Assembly (NCBI GenBank): GCA_034722955.1
Contig: JAYEOM010000014.1
Location: forward strand, 8,806-24,461
Length of the DNA: 15,656 bases
Direction: 5' to 3'
Source: Campylobacterota bacterium
Lineage (GTDB): Bacteria > Campylobacterota > Campylobacteria > Campylobacterales > Sulfurovaceae
In this document: positions 2-11,638 of the stretch, one piece after another
Numbering within the stretch: the stretch's first letter is position 1
Layout: every line of letters begins with the position of its first letter
Made by a program: the position numbers and the translations under genes
Notes under the pieces: model-generated
What the model saw: the letters and a program-made list of their open reading frames with translations, nothing else
Databases searched by the model: none
Told to the model about the DNA's origin: nothing

Positions 2-634
2 GGTCGCGGCACTAAAGTTCCACGATCGGGTTACGAAGTTGACTTGTTCAAAAAGATCAAGGATGCGTTGTCCAAAGGCAAAAGGATAGACCAAGAACAA
101 CTATTATTGATGGGTTTGGAATCAAGTATTGATAAAAAGGGAAATGTAAACCTTCAAGATGTTTTTCTTACGATACATAATGTTACCCGCTTGTTGGCTC
201 GTCCAGAGACATGGTGGGCACCTAAATATTATCCTGGCGTATTGATAGAGACTCCATTTGGCACCAAAGAGTTGACATCTGGTTCAATATACGGAGGACC
301 CAATATGAAGGGGGATAGCATCTATCCAATAATTAGGGATATTTATGATGACAGTCCGGTAGAAGGAGCTGGAAAAGGAGCAAAAACACTCGCACAATTG
401 ACAAAAATGAGGTTGGATAATAGAGTCAAAAAACAGCTTGAAAAACTCAAAATTGAGCTAAAAGTGGAGACTAACCCTGGCAAGAAAAAGAAAATTCAAG
501 AGAAAATTGATTCCCTTATCTACAATAAGGTGCTTTGTCTGAAGCTTTCTCGATTAAGTGCATCAAAAAAAAGAAAAAAAGCTCTGCCAAAAGCTGTCAG
601 CCTAAAGTACAGAAGTCCCGCAACAGCAAGCTGA
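2..634 (+). CDS. 5'-truncated hypothetical protein; probably the upstream part of a frameshifted giant gene continuing in 535..3996
   Basis: The frame is open from nt 2 (GRGTKVPRSGYEVDLFKK...), so the TTG at 44 is not necessarily the start. It overlaps the next ORF by 100 nt in a different frame, across an A-rich tract at 565-580. Confidence 0.6.
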   Translation, partial: GRGTKVPRSGYEVDLFKKIKDALSKGKRIDQEQLLLMGLESSIDKKGNVNLQDVFLTIHNVTRLLARPETWWAPKYYPGVLIETPFGTKELTSGSIYGGPNMKGDSIYPIIRDIYDDSPVEGAGKGAKTLAQLTKMRLDNRVKKQLEKLKIELKVETNPGKKKKIQEKIDSLIYNKVLCLKLSRLSASKKRKKALPKAVSLKYRSPATAS

Positions 635-3600
635 CAAGAGCTACAGTACCTTCAGCTGATGAAAAATCATTTAACAAACCACAGTTAATAACTTCTTTCG
701 GAGGCAGTTTCGAAGAGGAGCGTGTTGGTCATCCTTGTGATCCTTCTATCAAAAGTGGTCCGTTTAAGGTAATAGTGGGAGGCAAGATAGAGGTATGGAT
801 CAAGGGATCCCCACCTATCATCCCAAAGTGGAGCTTGGGTAACAGTAACTCTGGAATAACTATACTCTATGAACCATGGCTTAGCGGTAATAAATACGAC
901 TCCAGCCAAAAACTTATTCACACTTCTGGTGATCTCAAGAGTGGCGAGTCCAAGGTCACAGCTACTCTGCCTGGCCCGGGTCTGCTTACTGCTTGGGTTG
1001 GTCAAGCCGCTGGATCTGGACCACTCAGTGGCAGCTGCTTCAAGCAATCCTTTCAAGCTAGGGTATCACTGGTGGAGACGGTACTACACAGCCCTTTGCG
1101 GGCAGGGGTCAAACTCTCCAGTGATGATATGATAGAAACGCAAGGGAAAGGATACTGCATAATCTCTGTTCCCTGCATGGGCGACATGGTGGTGGGATCC
1201 GATAGCAAGGTTCAGATCAAGGATGATGGTCGTATTTTTGACCTGCAGAGTGGCATTCTACGCGGACGCTCCAGATCAGACTGCAGTGCACCTGCCATCA
1301 AAGCAGGAACCTATCTGATTACTCCTGACGGCACTGAATACCAAGTACACCGCACCGATACAGCCACCCTAGTGCGGGTTCTCTCAGGTAATGTAACGGT
1401 AACTGATCCCCAAGGAGAGTCAATTATAGTTTCAGCCGGATATGAACTCTCACTACCATCGGGCAAAATAGTTCCACTGCAGCCTGACCAGGATGATGGT
1501 GGCAGGGTAGACGGCATCCCTCTATCTGAAATGTTGCTGGATGACGAAGATCCCGAACCTTTTGGAATCTTTCCAGCTTCTCTCGGAAAACAGGGAATGG
1601 AAAACGGCTGGAAATTTATAGACCCAAAAAACGACGCAACGATAACTGCATCAACGGACAGTGGCTTCACTGTTACAGTTCCTAACGAAAATGATATATG
1701 GAGCGAACGGGGAGATGCACCACGCCTTTTTCACAAGGCAACAGGTGACTTTGACCTGGAGGCTGACTTGACAATGACCTGTGCCGGACAACATTTAGCC
1801 ATTAGTGAATTTGCCATAATGGCACCAGGTAGCCATCTGGGTTATTTATCAAAACAGATGACACTGGACTCACCGGCCAGTCATATACAACTTCTCGGTG
1901 GCGGTTGGTATCGTTTAGACAATCGAAACCGTCTTCCTCTGTGGGATAGTAAACTTGCTGAAGGATTTGATCCTGAAGATAGAGCGATACGGTTTCGCTT
2001 GAGTCGTCGGGGAGAGTGGTTTATCACCTGGTGGAGTGCTGACAACAACAAATGGAATCTGGCAGGCTTGCAAAAAATCAATGCCCCACAAACCCTCTGG
2101 ACTGGTCTTGCCTTTAAACGCATGGCTCATGATCACAAACCTGATGCATCCTCGGTAAATCATCTCCGAGAGCTGATCCTAACAACGGGTGAGCCGAGCA
2201 CATTATCTTTGCCTAAATGGTTGGATATCCAAGTCTATGGAAGCATTGCTGCTCAAGGCTTGGATTGGTCTTTCCAGCATGATCCAGACCGTATGGGTGC
2301 ACTGCGCAAGATTCTAAGTCAGCCGATTGCTGGTGACTTCGATGCAGTAGCAAAAGTGAATATGGGTAAAAGTAAAATTTTAGATGGTCAAGGGTATATG
2401 GCTGGCATTCAAGTAGTTGGAAATCATGAAAAAGATCGTACCTATGTGGTACTTAGTGATCATTTCACTCATAAGGGTCGTTATTTTACTGATATGAGCG
2501 TAGCTGGACACTGGGGTGATTATCAATGGAGGGATACAAAAGATAAAAAAGGCTGGGTACGCTTAGTTCGACAAAATGGTATAGTCAACTCCTACTATTA
2601 TAAAGATGGAGGATGGGTACGCTTAGACAAATTTGAGCGTAAATTTGAAGGAGAGCTGCACTTGGAACTTATTAGTAGTAGCAACTGGGATGCTAAGAAA
2701 TCATCAAATTTCATGTCAGAGATTCAATTGGAGAGACTAGTTACTGGGGCTGCGGTGGGTGGTGATTATCGACCTCAGGGATACACTCTAATGTCTGAAT
2801 TACCGTTGCCCTCTCTCAATCTCTCCCCTAATATTTCAGCCAAGCTCTTTCACGCTCCCTACCCAATACAGGGACCTTTTTTTGATCAAGCAGATAATCT
2901 TTATCTGTTTCCAAGTGACAAAAAGAGGCAGGTTTTGATCAAGTTAAACTATTCAGGTATTAGTAGTCAATTCAGCAAAAGTGCAATTTTTACTGGCTTA
3001 AACAGAAAAAGAGGATTATGGCAAAACGGTAAACTTCTTATGACAGTTGACGGTTGGCCAGACGGTGGCAACAGTCATACTGGACTCTATGAGGTAAACA
3101 GGGACGGAACCTTTAAAAAGATCGATCTAGGACGAGAATTGTGGGGACTGGCTGGAATCTCCTCCCTTCCTGATGGTAGTTTATTGCTTAGTGACTTTGA
3201 GTCTGATGGAGTTTGGAAATACGATAACATAGGAAAAATTAGTCAGTTATTAAAAAAACCGCCGACTTGCCCAATGGAATTGACCGTTGACCCGAAAGAA
3301 GGTGCTATTTATCTAGCCAACGCTGCCCAAGGTTATAGCTGTTCTGGAAAATCTGGTCTCTTTGAAGTCAAAAAAGATGGCTCCTTGAAAGAACTTTATC
3401 TCTCCAAGAATAACAAAAACTTGGGTGGTATGGCATGGCTGAATCAAGGTGTTTTCCCTGAAGGACTTTATGCCACGCTAACTGAGCAGGGAAAGCTGAT
3501 CAGGTTAGACAGTCAGGGCAGGACACATATCATTTTAGAAGGTTTGACCCATCCTAGTCAATTGGCGGTGACACAAGATAGTAGAACCTTGGCTATTTGT

Positions 3601-3996
3601 TTGGGCGAAAGGGATCTTTTATTGATTCGAAATAAAAACAGACTAATATCTGTAGATAAACAAGAAACTCTAAAAAAAGCACAGGAGCTATTGCAAAAAA
3701 GTCGTAAATTATGGAAACAGGGGCAACTTCAGCAAGCAGTAGCTACAGTTGAAAATGCTCGAAAACTTTCTAATAAAGATAAAGAGATTATCAAAACACT
3801 CAAAGCAATGAGAAAACAGAAAGAACAGCTTGACGATAAACTGCAGAAGGCTATTGATTTAATCAATCAAGGTAAATTGAAAGAGGCATATAGTGTTCTC
3901 TCTAGTGCTGCTATGATCAGTGATAAATATTCAAAATATATAAAAGTATTACAACAGCTAGAGGATGCAAAAAATATTAAAAGTACTAAAAAATAG
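535..3996 (+). CDS. Large modular protein: FecR domain, two ConA/DUF1349-like beta-sandwiches, NHL/SMP-30-like beta-propeller, C-terminal TPR-like helices
   Basis: 1153 aa ORF. FecR-like segment ~1090-1455 (LSSDDMIET...GTEYQV...VRVLSGNVTV). Lectin-like repeats ~1600-2180 (NDIWSERGDAPRLFHKATGDFDLEA) and ~2215-2740 (GDFDAVAKV...WVRLVRQNG). Propeller blades ~2840-3630 (LPDGSLLLSD, LTVDPKEGAIYLAN, GLTHPSQLAVTQD). TPR-like tail ~3660-3996. True start uncertain. Confidence 0.8.
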   Translation: MSEAFSIKCIKKKKKSSAKSCQPKVQKSRNSKLTRATVPSADEKSFNKPQLITSFGGSFEEERVGHPCDPSIKSGPFKVIVGGKIEVWIKGSPPIIPKWSLGNSNSGITILYEPWLSGNKYDSSQKLIHTSGDLKSGESKVTATLPGPGLLTAWVGQAAGSGPLSGSCFKQSFQARVSLVETVLHSPLRAGVKLSSDDMIETQGKGYCIISVPCMGDMVVGSDSKVQIKDDGRIFDLQSGILRGRSRSDCSAPAIKAGTYLITPDGTEYQVHRTDTATLVRVLSGNVTVTDPQGESIIVSAGYELSLPSGKIVPLQPDQDDGGRVDGIPLSEMLLDDEDPEPFGIFPASLGKQGMENGWKFIDPKNDATITASTDSGFTVTVPNENDIWSERGDAPRLFHKATGDFDLEADLTMTCAGQHLAISEFAIMAPGSHLGYLSKQMTLDSPASHIQLLGGGWYRLDNRNRLPLWDSKLAEGFDPEDRAIRFRLSRRGEWFITWWSADNNKWNLAGLQKINAPQTLWTGLAFKRMAHDHKPDASSVNHLRELILTTGEPSTLSLPKWLDIQVYGSIAAQGLDWSFQHDPDRMGALRKILSQPIAGDFDAVAKVNMGKSKILDGQGYMAGIQVVGNHEKDRTYVVLSDHFTHKGRYFTDMSVAGHWGDYQWRDTKDKKGWVRLVRQNGIVNSYYYKDGGWVRLDKFERKFEGELHLELISSSNWDAKKSSNFMSEIQLERLVTGAAVGGDYRPQGYTLMSELPLPSLNLSPNISAKLFHAPYPIQGPFFDQADNLYLFPSDKKRQVLIKLNYSGISSQFSKSAIFTGLNRKRGLWQNGKLLMTVDGWPDGGNSHTGLYEVNRDGTFKKIDLGRELWGLAGISSLPDGSLLLSDFESDGVWKYDNIGKISQLLKKPPTCPMELTVDPKEGAIYLANAAQGYSCSGKSGLFEVKKDGSLKELYLSKNNKNLGGMAWLNQGVFPEGLYATLTEQGKLIRLDSQGRTHIILEGLTHPSQLAVTQDSRTLAICLGERDLLLIRNKNRLISVDKQETLKKAQELLQKSRKLWKQGQLQQAVATVENARKLSNKDKEIIKTLKAMRKQKEQLDDKLQKAIDLINQGKLKEAYSVLSSAAMISDKYSKYIKVLQQLEDAKNIKSTKK
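565..580 (+). repeat. A8-G-A7 homopolymer tract within the overlap of the two frames
   Basis: Sequence AAAAAAAAGAAAAAAA read directly. It gives two A_AAA_AAA heptamers in the frame of the upstream ORF. Confidence 0.85.
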
Positions 3997-4008
3997 ATGT
4001 AGCCTAAA

Positions 4009-5094
4009 TCAAGGGTGGAGTCTCTCCAGCAGTGCCTCTATTGATAGATTGGAAGTAGGAAGCAGCCCTCTTTTGTTATAGCTTTTTCCATTTGGTGTAA
4101 TAATTTTACCATAAGTAAGGAGTAGAGCATCTCCACCTGTAAGGGGTATAAATTTCTGGACTACACCCTTGCCAAAACTCCTCTTTCCGATAGACTCTGC
4201 ACGATCATTTTGAGTAAGTGCAGCAATAAAAACCTCTGCTGCACTAGCAGTAAACTTATCTTGCAGCAGAAAGGTAGGTCTCCCCTCCATAAGGTCTGAA
4301 GTTGATGCATGATAGTCATTATGGCTCTTTGCAGTTTTTATGGAAGAGATTAGGGTATTTTTGGGAAGCAGCAGGTCAGCACTCTGCAGAGCTGCAAAGT
4401 AATCTCCTCCTCCATTGCCTCTCAGGTCGATTACGATAGGAATACTTTTGGGCCATTGACGCAATATGCCTTGAAGCTCCTGTGGAGTCTCTCCTGTAAA
4501 TCTAACAATTTGGATAATAGCTGTTCCGTTTTCTATAATCGGCTGAACACTCTGAAAGTGCTGCTCCGTGCGCTTGAGTGTGGTTGATTGCAGTTGACCA
4601 GATGATTTTCGTATCTCCAGTGTTACACTGCTATTTTTTTTGCCTCGTATCCAACTACTCACAAGATAAAAATTTTTACCCTCTACTGATCGACCATCTA
4701 CACTGACAAGTTCATCATATTTGGAAATTTTATCTTTTCCCAGATGTTTTTCAGTCGGTATACATAAAATTTTTTCGTATCTATTTTGTTGATATAAAAC
4801 CATACCAACACCTGCATATTCAGGAGTAAGAGTGTGCAAAAAAGCCTGATACTCTTCTTTGCTGAAGTAGTCACCATATCTATCAATCTTGCGGATATAT
4901 AGTTTAAGAATACTTTGTGGGATGCTATGGAGTGTGTCAACATATAGACTCTCCGAAGAGATTTTAGTCAGAGCTTCATAGAAGGAGACCATCTCATCAT
5001 TATTGTACCATTTAGAAGGATTACCATAGAGTGTAAATGTCATACCAATTATCAAAACACTCAGTAATTTACCTATAAATCTAAATTTTATCAA
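4009..5094 (-). CDS. S41A family C-terminal processing (tail-specific) protease, CtpA/Prc-like, exported
   Basis: Signal-peptide-like N-terminus; PDZ-like segment (YAGVGM...DELVSVDG...IRGKKNSSVTLEI); IVIDLRGNGGG; catalytic Ser in TASAAE and Lys in SFGKGVVQ. The TTG start overlaps the end of the upstream gene. Confidence 0.93.
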   Translation of the reverse strand: MIKFRFIGKLLSVLIIGMTFTLYGNPSKWYNNDEMVSFYEALTKISSESLYVDTLHSIPQSILKLYIRKIDRYGDYFSKEEYQAFLHTLTPEYAGVGMVLYQQNRYEKILCIPTEKHLGKDKISKYDELVSVDGRSVEGKNFYLVSSWIRGKKNSSVTLEIRKSSGQLQSTTLKRTEQHFQSVQPIIENGTAIIQIVRFTGETPQELQGILRQWPKSIPIVIDLRGNGGGDYFAALQSADLLLPKNTLISSIKTAKSHNDYHASTSDLMEGRPTFLLQDKFTASAAEVFIAALTQNDRAESIGKRSFGKGVVQKFIPLTGGDALLLTYGKIITPNGKSYNKRGLLPTSNLSIEALLERLHP

Positions 5095-5629
5095 GCAGTT
5101 CCATCTCTTTTAACAGTAGTTTCTGATTTTTTTTTATGAGCTCATATTCATTTTTCATCTGCTTGAGCTCATCATTTTTACTTTGTAGATTCTTAAGATT
5201 ACTACACCCACTCTTGTTGCCAAGTCTGCAAGACTTCTCATAATAGAGTTTTGCTTTTGTACTATTCTGCTCTGACCACTCCTCTGTAAAATAGAGATCA
5301 CCAAGATGACTGCATCCATCACTACTGTTTAATTTGCAAGCTTTATCATAATAGATTTTTGACTTATTATAATCTTTCTCTATCTCTGCTCCAAAGTAAT
5401 ATAGATCAGCCAAATTAATGCACCCTATAGAGTAACTCATAGCACAAGCTTTATCATAATAGAATTCTGCTTTTTCATAACTCTGCATAACACCCTGCCC
5501 CACTTCATAGAGGTAGGCAAGATCGTTACAGTTTTCACTGCTATTTGCATCACAAGCTACTTTGATCTTTTCAAATGATTGTGCCTCTATACCAAGTGTA
5601 AGAACCACTATAAGTAATATATATTTCAC
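5081..5629 (-). CDS. Secreted Sel1-like repeat, cysteine-rich (Hcp-type) protein with a C-terminal coiled coil
   Basis: Repeats LAYLYEVGQGVMQSYEKAEFYYDKAC and LADLYYFGAEIEKDYNKSKIYYDKAC, with four C-X7-C pairs. The likely start is GTG at 5629, 6 nt after AAGG, giving signal peptide MKYILLIVVLTLGIEA. Confidence 0.9.
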   Translation of the reverse strand: MKYILLIVVLTLGIEAQSFEKIKVACDANSSENCNDLAYLYEVGQGVMQSYEKAEFYYDKACAMSYSIGCINLADLYYFGAEIEKDYNKSKIYYDKACKLNSSDGCSHLGDLYFTEEWSEQNSTKAKLYYEKSCRLGNKSGCSNLKNLQSKNDELKQMKNEYELIKKNQKLLLKEMELLDKI

Positions 5630-5641
5630 TATCAACCTTAG

Positions 5642-5663
5642 GGAGGAGAGCGACTACTCCTCC
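5642..5663. other. Intergenic GC-rich hairpin (GGAGGAG-8 nt-CTCCTCC)
   Basis: Perfect 7 bp stem. A T-rich tail follows it only on the + strand; on the - strand it lies 2 nt before the RBS of the Sel1 gene. Confidence 0.65.
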
Positions 5664-5692
5664 TATTTTCTCTATATAAGTCGAGACTATAT

Positions 5693-5905
5693 CTATAGCT
5701 GTCTCTTCAAGCGGGCACTTTTGCGTTTTTGTGCAGCGGTGTCTTGTTCGATATCAGATAGGTGTCTCTCCCGATCATCTAGACGCTGTTCATAAGCTTT
5801 GGGATTGTAGCTAAACAACCCTCCTTGTCGAGGATCAGTTGTGGTTCCAGCACAACCCCCCAAGATTAAAATTGCTAAAATGCCAACCAAATATCTCTTT
5901 TTCAT
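5693..5905 (-). CDS. Small lipoprotein with a coiled coil
   Basis: MKKRYLVGILAILILGG-C lipobox; AAGGAG RBS; starts 12 nt downstream of the preceding gene. Confidence 0.85.
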   Translation of the reverse strand: MKKRYLVGILAILILGGCAGTTTDPRQGGLFSYNPKAYEQRLDDRERHLSDIEQDTAAQKRKSARLKRQL

Positions 5906-5917
5906 CGCTTCTCCTTT

Positions 5918-6550
5918 TTATACGGCTGCAAGTGCAGAGACTGATGCAAGAGCATTGGTATTTTCTCTCAACTGACTATTTTGTTGCTCCATAACCCTAA
6001 TCTCTTGCTCAAGACGGCTCGCTTCTGATCTTTTCCCCATCCTTTTTGCATCTCTCAATACACCTCTTTGTGCTTTTAGTTGGTACTGTGCATCTTTTAA
6101 GGCTTTATTTGCTTTTACCCTCTCTCTATCTATCATCTGTTTTTGTCTACGCATTTGTGTTCTTGAAACTTTATTTTGCCTATAGAGGCGTGCTAGTCTC
6201 TTGGTCTCTGCAATTTTATTTGATAGTTTTGCATTGTATGCCCTCGTATTTCTATTTACTTTACGAGCATCATAGATACAGGCATTCAGCCAATCCTCTT
6301 TGCGTGCATATTTAGCTTTTTCATTTGCTACATGAGAACCATAAGCATATCCTGCTGCGCCACCCAATGTAGCACCCCATGCAGCACCTCGTCTACCTCC
6401 AATAGCCGCTCCAAGCAGAGCACCACCTACTACGCCTACGCCAGTCCCTTCTGCTTTCGTCCGCTGAGAGTCAGTCATATTTTGCTGAGCACATCCAGTC
6501 AAACCTACAATCAGAGCGGCAGAAAATGATAATATAACTATACGCTTCAT
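5918..6550 (-). CDS. Glycine-zipper lipoprotein with a long basic coiled coil (TagQ-like architecture)
   Basis: LTG-C lipobox (Cys20); GTGVGVVGGALLGAAIGGRRGAAWGATLGGAAGYAYG glycine zipper; helical C-terminal half; AAGGATAAGG RBS. Confidence 0.88.
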   Translation of the reverse strand: MKRIVILSFSAALIVGLTGCAQQNMTDSQRTKAEGTGVGVVGGALLGAAIGGRRGAAWGATLGGAAGYAYGSHVANEKAKYARKEDWLNACIYDARKVNRNTRAYNAKLSNKIAETKRLARLYRQNKVSRTQMRRQKQMIDRERVKANKALKDAQYQLKAQRGVLRDAKRMGKRSEASRLEQEIRVMEQQNSQLRENTNALASVSALAAV

Positions 6551-6631
6551 ACCTTATCCTTGTAAACTATTATTAAATAGGTCTTATGCAAAACTTAACT
6601 TTATAAGCTATACCAGAATACCTATTGTTTT

Positions 6632-6637
6632 ATTATA
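6632..6637 (-). promoter_or_regulatory. Possible internal sigma70 -10 box upstream of the glycine-zipper lipoprotein gene
   Basis: TATAAT on the minus strand in the 115 nt intergenic gap; no TG extension. Confidence 0.4.
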
Positions 6638-6665
6638 GAGCAACCAACCTAATTTTTCTTTTAAT

Positions 6666-8246
6666 TTAGAGTAAAATATCATCTTCCCACTCTTTAGGGT
6701 TGACTCGTTTATTTTTCTGATACTCATCAACATGCTTTTGCATCTTGTTGATGAGTCGAACTTGTTCTGCATCATTGGCAAGCAGAAGAAAGTCTAGATA
6801 TTCAGCAAAACCTTGTCTGACGGCTTCTGGAGAAAAATCACTGATTTTTCGAATAGAGTCAGTATAGTTAGTAAATGTCTGTTTTATATTGGATCTTCTC
6901 TCTTCTTTACGCTTCTCATATCTCTCAACTTTTGGCATATCATTTTGTGATTTTGCAATACTGATGAGCAGATCGCTTCTCGTGACCAATAGCTTAGTCT
7001 CCCGTATAACAGCTCGTGCTTGTTCACCTGCATTCTTAATATTAAGATATGCGTTGTCCTTCTCAAATTTGAGACGAATAGTTGCCATATTTCGGATAGA
7101 ACTATCAAGGTATCCTAGAGTATTTTTGATTTCGCTGTCCTCAAAACCTCTCTGATTCAATCTTTTTTTGAGTCTATCCAGATATGAAAAGGCATCTTCT
7201 CCTCCTGCTGCCACTTGAGTGCTTATAGTACTTGTTGAGAGGGCTGCGGGTGTATTTGCACCAAGCATAGTGCGATACCCTTCCCACTCATTTGACATCT
7301 CCTTTTGTACCTTTCGGCTAGGAAATACCAAGGCAGAAATTATCAGACGAAATCCTAATGTTTTTTTTGTATGAGGCTTAAATACTCCCTTGCTATCAAA
7401 CCTATAGAAAGGCTGCTCTGTACGAAAAGATGAGCGCAATTTATTTTTTGCTGTTGTATAGTTATTGCCTTTGACGACAAATCCACCTGTCCGCCCCTGA
7501 TAATACTCCACTCTAAAAAGTGACATCGTTATCTCATCCGCATTTCCTAGCATGTCATGGAGTCCTAGAGGGTTCGGCTTGAGAACGCCAATAGGCTGTA
7601 GCTTGTAGTAAGAAGAGGTAGGTCCGCCATACCACTCATATTTTTGAATTGTATTGCTAGAGTATGGAGTTTTTTGATCAAAAACATCCTCACTTACAGC
7701 AGAACCGCCTCTAGCAGCAAATTCCCATTCAGCCTCCGTAGGAAGACGCACAAAACCATAAGAGTTATCAAATTTTGGAATCTCCTCTTTTGCATTAGCA
7801 TAGAGCCATTGATTATACCTATTGCTAAACTCCATAGCATCAAACCATGAAATATTAGTCACAGGATAGACCCTCTTCTTTTTGGGAAAAGGTTTCTCTG
7901 CTCTCATCAAAGAGGCATATTGCTTTTCAGTAATCTCATACTTTCCCATATAATAACACCACATTTTTTTACCATTTTTTTCTATAGGGAAAGAGCCGCC
8001 AAGAGCCATCGAAGTAGGATACTCCTTGAATCCGCCAGAGGGGTCGCCTAATTTAATTTTTTTCCAATCATACAAGCCACTGTTTTGATTGACACAAACT
8101 GGCATAAATTCCATAGTGATACCATTTGGCATGGGAAGGAGAAGTGAGTTATCTTTTTTATCTCCTACTGCTTCTGCAACACTTGAGCAGACTACAAAAA
8201 GGAGTATAAACCTTAGTACAACTGATAATCTATCTATTTTTATCAA
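6666..8246 (-). CDS. Exported FGE-sulfatase (SUMF1)-domain protein, TagR-like, with a helical C-terminal domain
   Basis: Signal peptide ending AEA; motifs MGKYEIT..QY, PVTNISWFDA, RLPTEAEWEFAARGG, PNPLGLHDMLGN, LGFRL; lacks the catalytic FGE cysteines. GFVRLPTE.EWEFAARGGSAVS, GGFVVKG.NY and C-terminal HV.EY...R..P match my recollection of Pseudomonas TagR. AGGAG RBS before the TTG start. Confidence 0.88.
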   Translation of the reverse strand: MIKIDRLSVVLRFILLFVVCSSVAEAVGDKKDNSLLLPMPNGITMEFMPVCVNQNSGLYDWKKIKLGDPSGGFKEYPTSMALGGSFPIEKNGKKMWCYYMGKYEITEKQYASLMRAEKPFPKKKRVYPVTNISWFDAMEFSNRYNQWLYANAKEEIPKFDNSYGFVRLPTEAEWEFAARGGSAVSEDVFDQKTPYSSNTIQKYEWYGGPTSSYYKLQPIGVLKPNPLGLHDMLGNADEITMSLFRVEYYQGRTGGFVVKGNNYTTAKNKLRSSFRTEQPFYRFDSKGVFKPHTKKTLGFRLIISALVFPSRKVQKEMSNEWEGYRTMLGANTPAALSTSTISTQVAAGGEDAFSYLDRLKKRLNQRGFEDSEIKNTLGYLDSSIRNMATIRLKFEKDNAYLNIKNAGEQARAVIRETKLLVTRSDLLISIAKSQNDMPKVERYEKRKEERRSNIKQTFTNYTDSIRKISDFSPEAVRQGFAEYLDFLLLANDAEQVRLINKMQKHVDEYQKNKRVNPKEWEDDILL

Positions 8247-8307
8247 AAACTCTCCTCTCTATTTCCAAATTGTTAGAATACAAAAAACTTCTGCAATACC
8301 CTATCTA

Positions 8308-8316
8308 TGGTATAAT
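8308..8316 (+). promoter_or_regulatory. Extended -10 promoter (TGnTATAAT), rightward
   Basis: TGGTATAAT, matching the Campylobacterota housekeeping-sigma consensus. Confidence 0.6.
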
Positions 8317-8337
8317 TCTCTACTAAAAATAGAGAAT

Positions 8338-8346
8338 ATTATATCA
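8338..8346 (-). promoter_or_regulatory. Extended -10 promoter (TGnTATAAT), leftward, for the five-gene cluster
   Basis: TGATATAAT on the minus strand, about 90 nt upstream of the 8246 start. Confidence 0.65.
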
Positions 8347-8427
8347 AGTTTATATAAAATACGAAATAAATTTTGCCAGGAGTTGTTGCTTGAAAATGTG
8401 TTTAGGGCACCCTTAAAGTTACTTCGA

Positions 8428-8433
8428 TATAAT
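8428..8433 (+). promoter_or_regulatory. -10 box of the probable rpmE operon promoter
   Basis: Perfect TATAAT about 150 nt upstream of the rpmE ATG, immediately before a structured region. Confidence 0.55.
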
Positions 8434-8439
8434 ACCGAT

Positions 8440-8581
8440 CTAAATTTTCATGAATTTTATGAAAAGTTGTCTCGGCAAAGACCGTTGCAACAACCCCTGT
8501 CTGATGATAGAGGAAGGGTACATTGATTGTGCCGGAGTGGGTTGGTTGCCCATCGATGAAATTATTTTAAAGGTTTATGTG
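8440..8581 (+). ncRNA. Candidate structured 5' leader of rpmE (putative L31 leader)
   Basis: Hand-folded: hairpin 8445-8465, then a three-way junction with P1 8487-8496/8539-8549, P2 8497-8501/8506-8510 and P3 8517-8522/8528-8533. Confidence 0.45.
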
Positions 8582-8782
8582 ATGAGAAAAGATATCCATC
8601 CAAATTATGTTGAGTGCCAAGTAACTTGTGCATGTGGAAATGAGTTTAAGATCAAGTCTGACAAAGATACTATGTCCATAGATATTTGTAATGAGTGTCA
8701 CCCATTCTTTACTGGCTCTGAGAAGATAGTTGATGCTGCCGGGCGTGTTGAGAAGTTTAAAAGCAAATATAAACTCTCCTAA
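8582..8782 (+). CDS. rpmE: 50S ribosomal protein L31 (Zn-binding C+ type)
   Basis: [42 protein letters not shown] at 8570-8573. Confidence 0.98.
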
Positions 8783-8855
8783 TCTACAGGGGAGACAGAG
8801 GCTTAATTGTGCTTTGCAAGATTTAACCAATCTCCCCAAAATACTCTAAACAATC

Positions 8856-9674
8856 ATGCTTACATTTATCCCCACCCCTATAGGCAACATCCAAGATATT
8901 ACACTTCGTGCTATGCATATGTTCGAAAGAGCTGATCTCTTTCTATGTGAAGATACCAGAGAGACAAAACGGCTTTTGAAGTTTTTGAGTGAAAGATTTG
9001 ACTTCACACTCCCGTCTCAAGCTATATATATCTCCTTTAATGAACATAATGGTCGATCAAGACTCATAGAGTGGGGCGATAAGCTCAGTGAACAAGAGGT
9101 TGTTTTTGTGAGTGATGCAGGTATGCCTGTGATCTCTGATCCGGGGCAGATTTTGGTAGAGTATTGCCAGAAGAACTCTATCTCTTATGATGTACTGCCA
9201 GGATCTTCGGCTGTAGTGACTGCTTATGCTGCTAGCGGTTTTGAGGAGGGTCAATTTCTCTTTTATGGTTTTTTGCCTCACAAGGGAAGCCAACGCAATA
9301 GAGCATTGAATGAAGTGCTAAATACAGGCTACAACACTATACTCTATGAGTCACCGCATCGCTTGATGAGACTCCTAGAAGAGGTCTCTATGGCTGATCC
9401 CGATAGGAGACTTTTTTTAGGAAAAGAGTTGACAAAAAAATTTCAAACCTATTATCTTGAGTCAGCAAAAGAGATGGTGGATCTTTTCAGGGAAGAGCAT
9501 ATTCGCGGGGAGTGGGTCGTCATCATAGCAGCACAAAAAGATGAGAGAGAAGCACTCTACTTAGAGGATATACTCTCACTAGATCTCGCACCAAAGCCCA
9601 AGGCTAAACTCCTTGCCAAACTTACAGGTGATAGTGTCAAGAGCTGGTATGAGAAGTTGATAGCATCACATTAG
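8856..9674 (+). CDS. rsmI: 16S rRNA (cytidine1402-2'-O)-methyltransferase
   Basis: PTPIGNIQDITLRA, CEDTRET, VSDAGMPVISDPG, YESPHRL, KELTKKFQ, RGEWVVI. Confidence 0.96.
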   Translation: MLTFIPTPIGNIQDITLRAMHMFERADLFLCEDTRETKRLLKFLSERFDFTLPSQAIYISFNEHNGRSRLIEWGDKLSEQEVVFVSDAGMPVISDPGQILVEYCQKNSISYDVLPGSSAVVTAYAASGFEEGQFLFYGFLPHKGSQRNRALNEVLNTGYNTILYESPHRLMRLLEEVSMADPDRRLFLGKELTKKFQTYYLESAKEMVDLFREEHIRGEWVVIIAAQKDEREALYLEDILSLDLAPKPKAKLLAKLTGDSVKSWYEKLIASH

Positions 9675-9717: not shown

Positions 9718-10404
9718 ATGATTATTTATGGAAAACAGGTATGCTTATACACGCTTAAGCACCACCCAACACGCGTCAAAACTGTCTATCTCGCAAAAAA
9801 AGGATTGCTCTCCGGATCACTCTTTGATCAGTATAGACCTATGATCAAGTTTTTAGAAAACAAGTGGGCTCAATCGATGAGCAAGGGTGGCAATCATCAG
9901 GGTATCCTGCTGGAGATCAGTGATTTTGAATTGACCGATTTTGCACATATCAAAAAGAGTGATTTTATAGTTATACTCGATGGATTGACAGATACGGGAA
10001 ATATCGGTGCTATCGTCAGAAGTGCCTATGCATTAGGTGCAGATGCTGTGATAGCGACAGGAGTAAAGCAGTTAAACTTTTCGGCTATCACTCGCACTAG
10101 CTCAGGAGCACTGCTAGATATGCCTTTTATGATCTCTAGTAACATATTGGATATTTTCAATGAATTGCATCAGGTGGGATTTGTCTCTTATGGTGCCTCG
10201 ATGGATGGTAAAGCGATTGAGTCTATGACCTTCTCTCCCCAAAGGGTTTTAGTACTAGGGAGTGAGGGGGCAGGCTTGTCCAAAAAAGCAAAATCAAAAG
10301 TCAAAGAGATGGTATCGATCAAAATGAAGCATAGTTTTGACTCTCTCAATGTCTCAGCGGCAGCAGCTATTATAATACACAGGATGGGATATGCAGTTAA
10401 ATGA
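9718..10404 (+). CDS. rlmB: 23S rRNA (guanosine2251-2'-O)-methyltransferase, SpoU/TrmH family
   Basis: MIIYGKQ, NHQGI, LDGLTDTGNIGAIVRSA, LVLGSEGAGL, DSLNVSAAAAII. Confidence 0.92.
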   Translation: MIIYGKQVCLYTLKHHPTRVKTVYLAKKGLLSGSLFDQYRPMIKFLENKWAQSMSKGGNHQGILLEISDFELTDFAHIKKSDFIVILDGLTDTGNIGAIVRSAYALGADAVIATGVKQLNFSAITRTSSGALLDMPFMISSNILDIFNELHQVGFVSYGASMDGKAIESMTFSPQRVLVLGSEGAGLSKKAKSKVKEMVSIKMKHSFDSLNVSAAAAIIIHRMGYAVK

Positions 10405-11638
10405 ACTGATGGAAGAACAGACGGCAGATAGTATCGCAAAAAAAACACTTCTCTCAAAAAATGTTGTAGAGAGTCTTTTTAATAAAAAATTTGAATCATT
10501 GACACAATCACGAGCCCTTGGTGCTATCACGATCATAGAGCGAGAGTATGGTGTTGATTTGGATACATTGCGTCAAGAGGTCAAAGAGTATTTTGCTGAT
10601 CAATCATCAAATCAGAGTGGACTTATGGTGGGGGAACCCATAGTAAAAGAGAGCCGTCTCTTCTCTAAGCTTCTTACACTCATACTTATTGCTCTGCTTC
10701 TTTATGGCGCATGGTATTTTTTTGCCGGATACTATAAACAAAAAGTAGACCCTATGAATAGTGCAACAGAAAAATCTCTGATCACCATTATTTTGGAGGT
10801 AAAGGATACTATATTTGTAGCCAAAGAGGAGGAGGTCACAGAGAGTGACCTACCACTAAAAGAGGAGGAGAGTATAGAGCCAACTGATCACAGTGATACT
10901 TCAGATACAGTAGTTGACAGCTCTACGGATACCCCAGAGGAGAGCAGTAGAGTATCATCTCAAGACCCAGAGAGTACTACAGATAAAAATATCTCTACTG
11001 TAGTAAGAGAAAAAATAACTCTTATACCACACAATACCATGTGGTTTAAAGTGACCAATCTTGATACAAATGAGCAGATAGAGTTGAAGCGTCAAGAGAA
11101 GTATGATATTGACTTGAGTGAAAATAGCTGGCTTTTTGCCACAGAAGATGCTCTTTTTGCTTTTATAGATAATGATCAATTTGAAGAGTTTGGCAGTGAA
11201 GGAAAACTCTTCTTCAAGCTTGACCAGAGTGGTATCCATCCTCTCAGTGCCCAAGAGTATAGTATAGCCTCTGGCGAAGAGATCGCCATAGAGAAGAGTA
11301 CTCTTCAAGAGGAGAACCTATCAACAGTAGCAGAATCTAACCTATTTGAGACAGTAGGCGAGGAGCCAAAGATCATTACACTGATGCCAGGTGAAGATAT
11401 GTGGTTTAGGATGATTAACCTGACAACAAAAAAGAGACAAGCATTTAAGCAAAAGTCAAATTATAATATAGATGTGAGTTCTGATGAGTGGCTTTTTGCT
11501 GCACAAAATGTTAACTTTTCTTTTCGAGACGATAACAATACAGCTGCTTATGGCGGACGAGGGAAACTTTTTTATAAAATAGATCAGAGTGGCATCCACA
11601 AGCTAGGCGAAGATGAGTACAGAAGATTATCAAGATAA
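10391..11638 (+). CDS. RodZ-like bitopic membrane protein with a duplicated periplasmic C-terminal domain
   Basis: N-terminal HTH-like region (IAKKTLLSKNVVESLFNKKF...IIEREYGVDL), one TM helix (LLTLILIALLLYGAWYFF), acidic Ser/Thr linker, two ~85 aa beta-rich repeats. Its position between rlmB and the aminotransferase is as in Campylobacter. Confidence 0.7.
   Translation: MQLNELMEEQTADSIAKKTLLSKNVVESLFNKKFESLTQSRALGAITIIEREYGVDLDTLRQEVKEYFADQSSNQSGLMVGEPIVKESRLFSKLLTLILIALLLYGAWYFFAGYYKQKVDPMNSATEKSLITIILEVKDTIFVAKEEEVTESDLPLKEEESIEPTDHSDTSDTVVDSSTDTPEESSRVSSQDPESTTDKNISTVVREKITLIPHNTMWFKVTNLDTNEQIELKRQEKYDIDLSENSWLFATEDALFAFIDNDQFEEFGSEGKLFFKLDQSGIHPLSAQEYSIASGEEIAIEKSTLQEENLSTVAESNLFETVGEEPKIITLMPGEDMWFRMINLTTKKRQAFKQKSNYNIDVSSDEWLFAAQNVNFSFRDDNNTAAYGGRGKLFYKIDQSGIHKLGEDEYRRLSR

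Follow-up and report, generated by a model that had tools for sequence, protein, structure and literature searches.

What does a TagR/TagQ-like pair of envelope proteins do when it is encoded beside a C-terminal processing protease, in a genome in which no type VI secretion system (T6SS) is found? The question is raised by five minus-strand genes at positions 4009-8246 of a 15,656-nt stretch of DNA (the window; G000:C14:8806-24461) from a Sulfurovum-like Campylobacterota bacterium. The genome of this bacterium (G000; 2.51 Mb in 140 contigs, 99.97% complete) holds the whole locus on one contig, C14. A preliminary description, made from the letters of the window, had read the five genes as an orphan TagR/TagQ module, complete in the window, coupled to a Sel1 protein and a protease, and lacking TagS/T. 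We found that the five genes appear, by homology and position, to be one arm of a two-arm locus (G000:C14:3854-17051). This locus is probably a T6SS-independent, kinase-less relative of the TagQRST-PpkA membrane-damage sensor of Pseudomonas aeruginosa, with a dedicated S41 protease.

The five open reading frames (ORFs) encode, in the order of transcription, a TagR-like secreted protein with the fold of the formylglycine-generating enzyme (FGE) (6666..8246, 526 residues), a TagQ-like glycine-zipper lipoprotein (5918..6550, 210 residues), a small lipoprotein (5693..5905, 70 residues), a secreted Sel1-repeat protein (5081..5635, 184 residues) and an S41 protease (4009..5094, 361 residues). Gaps of 115, 12 and 57 nt separate the first four, and the S41 gene starts inside the Sel1 gene, with 14 nt in common. 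Each protein has a single N-terminal hydrophobic segment, and two have lipoboxes; signal-peptide and lipobox calls were made throughout with our own script for hydrophobic segments and a motif, not with a dedicated predictor. Together with the Pfam matches, these features confirm five co-oriented, closely spaced envelope genes, and their boundaries are as first described: a convergent ORF (535-3996, 1153 residues) on one side and divergent rpmE (8579-8782), followed by rsmI and rlmB, on the other. The FGE gene and the divergent rpmE are 332 nt apart, and this intergenic region (8247..8578) presumably contains the promoter of the five-gene arm. A scan of positions 3800-8900 gave 23 promoter-like signals (15.4 expected) and 7 terminator-like signals (2.8 expected), none of which delimited an operon. 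No RNA run covering 4009-8246 of the window was found; four DNA runs, all from one study, were, and two of these may be where the DNA itself came from.

The other arm was located by way of plasmids. A tblastn search of plasmids with the FGE-fold protein returned 220 records, 115 of them from Klebsiella; in two records the match took in 80% or more of the query. On a Haematospirillum plasmid, the gene series reads SrfB, SrfC, TPR, vWA, ABC ATPase, FtsX and FGE, followed by two genes annotated as hypothetical, which encode a glycine-zipper/coiled-coil lipoprotein (235 residues) and a small lipoprotein (163 residues); a Klebsiella plasmid carries the same series through the FGE protein. When the Srf-locus proteins of two plasmids were compared with G000 by tblastn, only contig C14 matched strongly: the vWA protein at 28% over 688 residues (1.7e-87), the ABC ATPase at 44% (2e-44) and the FtsX permease in two segments (2e-28 and 5.5e-26). 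Three plus-strand genes lie there, to the left of the window and convergent on the five-gene arm. They encode a secreted vWA protein (C14:3854-6007, 717 residues), an ABC ATPase (C14:6016-6747, 243 residues, PF00005) and an FtsX permease (C14:6744-8549, 601 residues, PF02687, four hydrophobic segments). The last of them ends 257 nt before the window, and all three lie 4.3-9 kb from the five-gene arm, on the same contig and the opposite strand. Because this arm was found by tblastn beyond the edge of the window, outside the letters that the preliminary description had covered, its statements that the cluster was complete and that TagS/T were absent proved wrong, and with TagT-, TagS- and PpkA-ectodomain-like genes on the same contig the pair is not an orphan. 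That description was partly supported, being right in spirit yet missing half of the locus.

As a stand-in for TagQRST-PpkA we used a metagenome contig, L037 (with a near-copy, L038), which carries in order a TssM/IcmF gene (four IcmF Pfam domains), two small ORFs, a 989-residue kinase (Pkinase at 8-249), ABC, FtsX, a 586-residue FGE protein and a 336-residue glycine-zipper lipoprotein. We take this to be the order of the P. aeruginosa H1 cluster, tssM, tagF, pppA, ppkA, tagT, tagS, tagR, tagQ. Residues 42-717 of the vWA protein aligned with residues 376-989 of the L037 PpkA-like kinase (27.8% identity, 6e-83), that is, with the entire non-kinase part of the latter, about 610 residues. The protein starts with a signal peptide and has no Pkinase match in Pfam; it is a free secreted protein without a kinase domain or membrane anchor. 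Its AlphaFold2 (AF2) model (pLDDT 70) matched integrin I-domains with TM scores of 0.70-0.76 (target-normalised), and an invariant D271-x-T273-x-S275 in the family alignment fits the vWA fold; a sequence search of the PDB gave no significant match to this protein. The ABC ATPase showed 41% identity to L037 TagT (1.4e-47), and the permease matched L037 TagS in two segments (1.3e-34 and 3.5e-28). By these alignments, the ATPase and the permease are TagT/TagS homologues linked to a tagR-like gene.

The permease is about 600 residues long in loci with the S41 gene (601 in G000 and 628 in the metagenome locus L021, at L021:7947-9833) versus 396-408 residues in the Srf- and T6SS-type loci. The extra 200 or so residues lie between membrane segments 1 and 2 and should therefore be periplasmic. 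Upstream of the vWA gene, C14:1998-3783 encodes a three-helix membrane protein (263 residues) and a secreted FG-GAP protein (330 residues); for neither was a counterpart found upstream of the vWA gene in the related genome G006.

The TagR-like protein matched the FGE-sulfatase family (PF03781, 1.6e-30, residues 98-284) and consists of a signal peptide, an FGE domain (about 98-300) and a C-terminal helical domain (about 349-525). FGE catalysis requires a cysteine pair. The mature protein has two cysteines, C51 and C97, and the invariant and near-invariant columns of a 20-sequence FGE family alignment include no cysteine. Because it has two cysteines only and no conserved cysteine column, the protein is not a canonical formylglycine-generating enzyme, which fits its first description as non-catalytic. 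The AF2 model (pLDDT 68 overall, 80-93 in the C-terminal helices) was most similar to non-enzymatic FGE-fold proteins, namely TvpA (Treponema variable protein), CarF, PvdO and PorK; in the PDB search by sequence, no TagR or TagQ entry was among the matches. Its alignment with the L037 FGE protein, at 28.6% identity over 570 aligned positions (E 1.8e-38), spans residues 24-517 of the window protein and 35-571 of the L037 protein and includes the C-terminal helical domain. A phmmer search of 1.84 billion representatives with that domain (340-526) gave 40 clusters at E <= 0.001, nearly all of them C-terminal matches, and a protein atlas search with the TagR-like protein gave generic FGE clusters only.

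Phylogenetic analysis placed this protein with TagR-like proteins, as had first been proposed. A quick tree was computed for 40 FGE-fold proteins, including 10 generic ones from weaker metagenome loci. In it, the 30 context-linked proteins stood apart from the generic ones (SH-aLRT 100), and the window protein, L001, L021, L022 and 11 database homologues formed a clade of 15 rows (97). A more careful tree was built from 30 rows after 10 had been dropped, four long-branched TagR-like sequences (L027, L032, L033 and L036) and six outgroups. It split 26 TagR-like rows from 4 generic FGE rows with support of 100/100 and placed the window protein in a separate subclade of the same 15 rows, the S41 type, at 98/100. 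The trees therefore indicate that the FGE protein is TagR-like at the family level yet belongs to a distinct subfamily.

The next gene after the FGE gene encodes a lipoprotein that combines an LTGC lipobox with a glycine zipper (PF13441/PF13488) and a coiled coil and ends in ...LASVSALAAV; its orthologue in L021 matched PF05433 at 7.9e-4, below the cut-off. TagQ itself has been likened to the Rickettsia 17-kDa antigen (PMC3608642; here and below, published work is described as far as the available parts of the papers go). In hhalign comparisons, the profile of the window family (24 members) matched the neighbouring lipoprotein of the Srf type at 99% over 196 columns, its full length, and the T6SS-type lipoprotein of L037 at 97.3% (E 2.2e-11) over 77 columns only; BLASTP of the window protein against the L037 lipoprotein gave no match. 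The initial assignment as TagQ is thus supported for position, lipobox and N-terminal half, and we call the protein TagQ-like in this limited sense. Its C-terminus is conserved in the subfamily. Among 87 homologues, 81 end in [A/S/T]-V, and the consensus ...T-x-x-L-A-S-[L/M/V]-S-A-x-x-A-V is retained down to 36% identity. The corresponding ends are MAV in L021, ISV in L022, RIG or TLG in three aligned Srf-type proteins and PNV in the T6SS type.

The small lipoprotein (LGGC lipobox; motif C-A-G-T-T-T-D-P-R-Q-G-G-L-F) belongs to no Pfam or NCBIfam family, and BLAST gave identities of 77% in L001, 45% in L021 and 49% in L022. The N-terminus of the 163-residue Haematospirillum lipoprotein, C-A-S-N-T-D-P-A-Q-G-G-F, resembles that of the 70-residue ORF. 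The latter is a short form of a coiled-coil lipoprotein of 161-182 residues found downstream of the TagQ-like gene in other loci: 70 residues were counted in G000 and G006 versus 161-182 in the others compared (L021, L022 and L015). The Sulfurovum small lipoproteins appear, from this alignment, to have lost the C-terminal coiled coil. On the Haematospirillum plasmid (L015), a convergent gene for a secreted trypsin-like protease (PF13365; L015:11669-12562) lies 8 nt past the small lipoprotein gene of the Srf-type cassette; it is a second, unrelated protease adjoining such a module.

The protease matched Peptidase_S41 (PF03572, 2.4e-30) and the NCBIfam model 'prc' (TIGR00225, 2.3e-51, residues 57-351). 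S284 and K309, which we take to be the catalytic Ser-Lys pair, are invariant across 24 orthologues. Its closest solved relatives are 7rpq/8sxe, 'carboxyl-terminal protease' (6.7e-32), followed by CtpB and Prc. It is the second S41 enzyme of G000, the other being a 469-residue protein encoded on contig C42. CtpA-like S41 proteins of about 450 residues, 22-28% identical to the window protease, were present in all 61 genomes searched, and the 361-residue paralogue was found in G000 and G006 only; in a third genome with the module, G012, the contig ends inside the FGE gene. By this distribution, the window protease appears to be a module-specific paralogue, not the housekeeping enzyme. C-terminal processing proteases read substrate C-termini. 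Because of this and of its conserved tail, the TagQ-like protein is the first candidate for a substrate or docking partner of the protease, a role that it may have; a complex prediction with residues 28-361 of the protease and 76-210 of the TagQ-like protein (24-row alignment each) scored 0.00 in both runs, which speaks neither for nor against it.

The Sel1 protein (PF08238, 1.2e-19, three stretches) has cysteine pairs at 28/36, 64/72, 100/108 and 136/144 (i/i+8, period 36; own script) and matched PDB entries 1ouv (3.6e-49) and 1klx, 'Cysteine Rich Protein B' (3.5e-18). Secreted, with a cysteine pair in each repeat and no lipobox, it conforms to the Helicobacter cysteine-rich (Hcp) type. The Sel1 gene occurs in the Sulfurovum versions of the locus only (G000 and G006) and is missing from L021 and L022, which places it, as far as the gene orders compared can tell, outside the conserved core of the module.

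The link between the module and the S41 gene recurs elsewhere. In L021, a sediment metagenome locus, a single strand encodes vWA (946 residues), ABC, FtsX (628), FGE, glycine-zipper lipoprotein, small lipoprotein (166) and S41 (396), with identities to the G000 proteins of 55, 44, 41, 43, 45, 45 and 40% in that order; the S41 gene follows the small lipoprotein gene immediately. In L022, with an FGE protein of 36% identity, the small lipoprotein gene is followed by an ORF that the contig end cuts off after 93 codons, and what there is of it matched the N-terminal part of S41 family members (hhalign 92%, 5e-7, 65 columns). In L001, which appears to be contig C17 of G006, the set of five genes is whole, Sel1 and S41 again share 14 nt, and the rpmE/rsmI side is the same. 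An S41 gene was therefore seen past the small lipoprotein gene in all three other loci of the subclade that reach that far (L001/G006, L021 and L022), L020 being too short to show the gene at this place. Of the coupling first proposed, the S41 part holds in distant loci and the Sel1 part in G000 and G006 only; likewise, the five-gene order is whole in L001/G006 and lacks Sel1 in L021 and L022. With a matching longest-contig value as a proxy for co-location, and no more than a proxy, at least 13 of the 43 closest FGE homologues pair with an S41 homologue, among them at least 8 of the 10 whose contigs measure 10 kb or more, and so do at least 19 glycine-zipper homologues besides the window's own; the S41 matches listed were 120 of 3002. 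The distant FGE homologues P0044-P0120 shared no longest-contig value with those 120 of 3002 matches, a result that is uninformative.

The two arms are convergent in G000, divergent and adjacent in G012 (vWA and FGE genes as neighbours, with a 173-nt gap between the matched parts), on separate contigs in G006 and joined in a collinear operon in L021. A search of 60 related genomes gave full-length FGE orthologues in two, G006 (69%) and G012 (56%, the gene being cut by the contig end), and weak FGE-domain matches only in 12 others. The vWA orthologues occur in the same two genomes (74% in G006, 56% in G012) and in none of three other genomes of the genus tested. The module is thus present in 3 of 14 genomes of the genus, G000 included, and in an even sample of the phylum none of 400 further genomes matched the FGE protein at E <= 1e-30 (G000 alone of 401). 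Whole-protein FGE homologues are numerous in the wider database, and the named ones come from Sulfurovum, Campylobacterota, Desulfobulbus, Syntrophobacteraceae, Desulfovibrio and Thermodesulfobacteriota; among these records are Sulfurovum sp. CS9, Desulfobulbus propionicus, D. alkaliphilus and Thermodesulfobacteriota bacterium B35. From the distribution of the FGE and vWA genes, the module therefore appears to be an accessory, patchily spread cassette of sulfur-cycling bacteria. Other wirings were seen in three of the metagenome loci: FtsX, FGE, a separate 507-residue Pkinase and vWA in L032; FGE, four small ORFs, a 1087-residue Tubulin_2 protein, vWA and ABC, with a divergent TPR-kinase, in L027; and ABC, FtsX, FGE and a PAN-domain protein in L033.

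The genome of the host lacks the usual partners of such genes as far as they were searched for. Family profiles found no VipB/TssC, Hcp, FHA or SrfB (PF07520) match in G000, the SrfB model having matched the Haematospirillum plasmid as a positive control, and tblastn found no TssM, TagF, SrfB or SrfC (SrfA and the PP2C/PppA-type phosphatase were not among the families searched). No PpkA-type kinase was found in G000. The sole Pkinase match above the cut-off belongs to a leucine-rich-repeat (LRR) Ser/Thr kinase of 436 residues on contig C131 (L017:883-2972), whose gene overlaps by 4 nt that of a patatin-like phospholipase. The absence of T6SS, Fha and PpkA genes, claimed at first for the cluster, thus extends to the genome searches, with the amendment that a PpkA-ectodomain-like vWA gene is present. 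Displacement from a full T6SS or Srf locus is not seen either, no such locus being found in this 99.97%-complete genome, with SrfA outside the search.

Between the two arms, 44..3996 of the window (plus strand) is occupied by two overlapping ORFs of 196 residues (44-634) and 1153 residues (535-3996), which separate the TagS-like gene, to the left of the window, from the S41 gene and whose membership in the module is doubtful. Within the 100 nt that they share lies an A8-G-A7 run (565-580), where a slip of one base would fuse the two; the contigs of the four DNA runs showed no indel in this run. Neither ORF has a hydrophobic segment or signal peptide (own script), and the longer one gave weak FecR, DUF1349, NHL-like and YfdX-like matches. 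We rejected the 1153-residue ORF as a part of the module: its last 90 or so residues alone match G006, nothing matches in G012, and L021 has no counterpart. Further away, a 415-residue ORF (10391-11638, plus strand) between rlmB and the gene for LL-diaminopimelate aminotransferase has no Pfam or NCBIfam match.

In P. aeruginosa, membrane damage induces a 2:2 TagQ/TagR complex that, to judge from models and from mutations in its loops, may bind a pair of periplasmic domains of PpkA; the ATPase activity of TagST is required, with its role described as unknown, and the 2026 paper suggests that the response may have no counterpart in other Gram-negative bacteria (PMC13713981). The sensor domain of PpkA is an extracellular vWA domain (PMC3224232). 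T6SS-independent tagQRST/ppkA-like genes beside srfABC were reported in 2013 from host-associated Deltaproteobacteria (PMC3608642), and a 2026 preprint describes Lol-like ABC, vWA and FGE genes beside srfABC in Haemophilus and Xenorhabdus, which in the available part of its text are not named TagRST (10.64898/2026.09.18.752743). The idea of a T6SS-uncoupled module stands, since no T6SS or Srf genes were found, and uncoupling is not new in itself. Text searches, with figures and supplements outside their scope, found among the papers listed no link of TagQ or TagR to an S41/CtpA protease, and the S41 coupling without a kinase appears to be a new variant.

Taken together, homology and gene order establish the predicted composition of the module (TagR-, TagQ-, TagT- and TagS-like proteins, a small lipoprotein, a PpkA-ectodomain-like vWA protein and an S41 protease), and the dedicated protease marks a distinct subfamily of TagQRST-like modules. 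Several points weigh against reading it as a relative of the damage sensor. The L037 proteins were named TagR, TagQ and PpkA by synteny and domains, and no P. aeruginosa sequences were compared. The likeness to T6SS-type TagQ is confined to the lipobox and a compositionally biased glycine zipper, and the careful tree does not tell in which order the S41-, Srf- and T6SS-linked clades split. In G000 the arms are on opposite strands with 3.9 kb of non-conserved ORFs between them, and in G006, a fragmented genome, each arm has a contig of its own. Beyond Sulfurovum and its clade, the evidence for the S41 link comes from two metagenome loci, L021 and L022. Pfam sees no PDZ domain in the window protease, though it finds one in more distant orthologues such as that of L021; from the span of the TIGR00225 match, the window protease probably has a PDZ part as well. 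The sole visible cytoplasmic output is the ABC ATPase, and each mechanistic step would follow from homology and inference.

Other explanations of the locus have to be set against this one. The module could handle lipoproteins instead of sensing damage, with a Lol-like ABC complex extracting the two lipoproteins, the FGE and vWA proteins acting as chaperones and the protease trimming the C-terminus of the TagQ-like protein during maturation. The homologous permeases beside srfABC have been described as LolF-like (10.64898/2026.09.18.752743), two lipoproteins are always encoded beside the ABC and FGE genes, and the TagQ-like tail is conserved; such a scheme, however, gives no role to the vWA protein and its conserved metal-site residues, and we regard it as unlikely. 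It is also rather improbable that the S41 and Sel1 proteins form a general pair for control of peptidoglycan hydrolases, of the LbcA-CtpA or NlpI-Prc kind, that merely neighbours the TagQR-like module. Adaptor-dependent proteases of this class that degrade cell-wall hydrolases are documented (PMC11021448, PMC8764530), P. aeruginosa has a lytic transglycosylase under the control of a small Sel1 protein of the periplasm (PMC10746161), and the closest solved relatives named above are of this family. Yet a housekeeping S41 enzyme is already present in the genome and in every relative, the 361-residue paralogue was found only with the module, in the distant, Sel1-less locus L021 an S41 gene of 40% identity still comes next to the small lipoprotein gene, on its downstream side, and the Sel1 protein is not a lipoprotein.

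Two further possibilities concern the TagR-like protein and its pair. That a self-contained TagR/TagQ pair has lost TagS/T and works with Sel1 and the protease only would agree with the lack of an ABC or vWA gene beside the five genes within the window; with TagT-, TagS- and PpkA-ectodomain-like genes 4.3-9 kb away on the same contig, co-occurring with the FGE gene in G006 and G012 and forming a single operon with it in L021, this is very improbable. FGE-like proteins can be T6SS immunity proteins, and the FGE-fold protein might act in the periplasm as an immunity protein or decoy for type VI effectors that enter the cell, the cluster being an orphan immunity island. The sporadic occurrence of the module would suit this, as would the remark that FGE domains serve in protein-protein interaction, 'including in T6SS related proteins' (PMC13713981). 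But the protein groups with TagR-like and not with generic FGE proteins, it shares its C-terminal helical domain and its ABC, vWA and lipoprotein neighbours with the TagR-like proteins, and no effector gene is adjacent; there is very little to expect from this alternative.

If the locus is a kinase-less relative of the TagQRST-PpkA sensor, as we prefer, envelope perturbation would drive the formation of a complex of the TagQ-like and TagR-like proteins, which would engage the vWA protein by analogy with P. aeruginosa. The ABC pair would supply ATP-driven work from the inner membrane, for which mechanotransmission of the MacB/FtsEX type offers an analogy. Because there is no kinase, the enzymatic step would be periplasmic proteolysis by the S41 protease, acting on a component of the module, in line with the output first proposed. 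The likeliest substrate would be the TagQ-like lipoprotein, whose apolar tail is conserved in this subfamily only; cleavage could either transmit or reset the response, and the Sel1 protein may assist the protease as an adaptor or inhibit it. For the cell, the purpose could be repair, remodelling or signalling. More tentatively, TagQRST together with a PpkA-type vWA ectodomain may be an old, portable damage sensor with interchangeable outputs (a kinase fused to the ectodomain and T6SS, a separate kinase, SrfABC, or an S41 protease). The S41 type would then be phosphorylation-free and wholly periplasmic, with damage exposing the TagQ-like tail and cleavage triggering or resetting local repair or remodelling powered by the ABC pair.

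The way in which TagQRST detects membrane damage and the part that TagST plays are still open questions in the field. A module that occurs in nature with neither a kinase nor T6SS or Srf proteins would mean that the periplasmic core has an independent existence, and with an ABC ATPase and a protease as its only enzymes, the module is a minimal system for finding the partners of the core and its first biochemical output. The analysis also provides a genomic setting for an S41 paralogue that is widespread yet unnamed and for a glycine-zipper lipoprotein family of sulfur-cycling bacteria (Sulfurovum and Desulfobulbus relatives).

Four groups of known systems or proteins resemble parts of the locus. 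With TagQRST-PpkA, it shares a periplasmic FGE-fold protein with a C-terminal extension (the FGE domain occupies 127-359 of the 62-kDa TagR, PMC13713981, and about 98-300 of 526 residues here), an adjoining glycine-zipper lipoprotein, an ABC pair of the MacB/Lol type and a vWA ectodomain. It differs in having no kinase domain in the module and no FHA, TssC, Hcp, TssM or TagF in the genome, in the lengths of the TagQ-like (210 versus about 300 residues) and TagS-like proteins (about 600 versus about 400), and in the addition of the small lipoprotein, the dedicated S41 protease and the Sel1 protein. The cassette that flanks srfABC on the Klebsiella and Haematospirillum plasmids is likewise kinase-less and T6SS-independent and has the same order of vWA, ABC, FtsX, FGE, glycine-zipper lipoprotein and small lipoprotein, with a full-length match of the glycine-zipper lipoprotein. 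Here, however, SrfB, SrfC and the Srf-type TPR protein are missing, an S41 gene ends the operon instead, the FGE protein belongs to a separate clade (98/100) and the lipoprotein has another C-terminal tail.

On the side of the protease, NlpI-Prc of Escherichia coli is an adaptor-dependent C-terminal processing system. The S41 fold, the invariant Ser and Lys and a helical-repeat protein encoded alongside are common to the window genes and LbcA-CtpA of P. aeruginosa, NlpI-Prc and CtpB of Bacillus subtilis. The repeat protein of the window, unlike those of LbcA-CtpA and NlpI-Prc, is a soluble Sel1 protein of the Helicobacter cysteine-rich type, not a TPR lipoprotein, and is missing in distant loci; the protease is a short, 361-residue paralogue additional to the housekeeping CtpA. 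HcpB/HcpC and the Sel1 inhibitor IltA (PA3978) share with the window protein Sel1 repeats with cysteine pairs and the character of a small secreted protein-binding module, whereas here the Sel1 gene is translationally coupled to a protease gene in a TagQRST-like locus.

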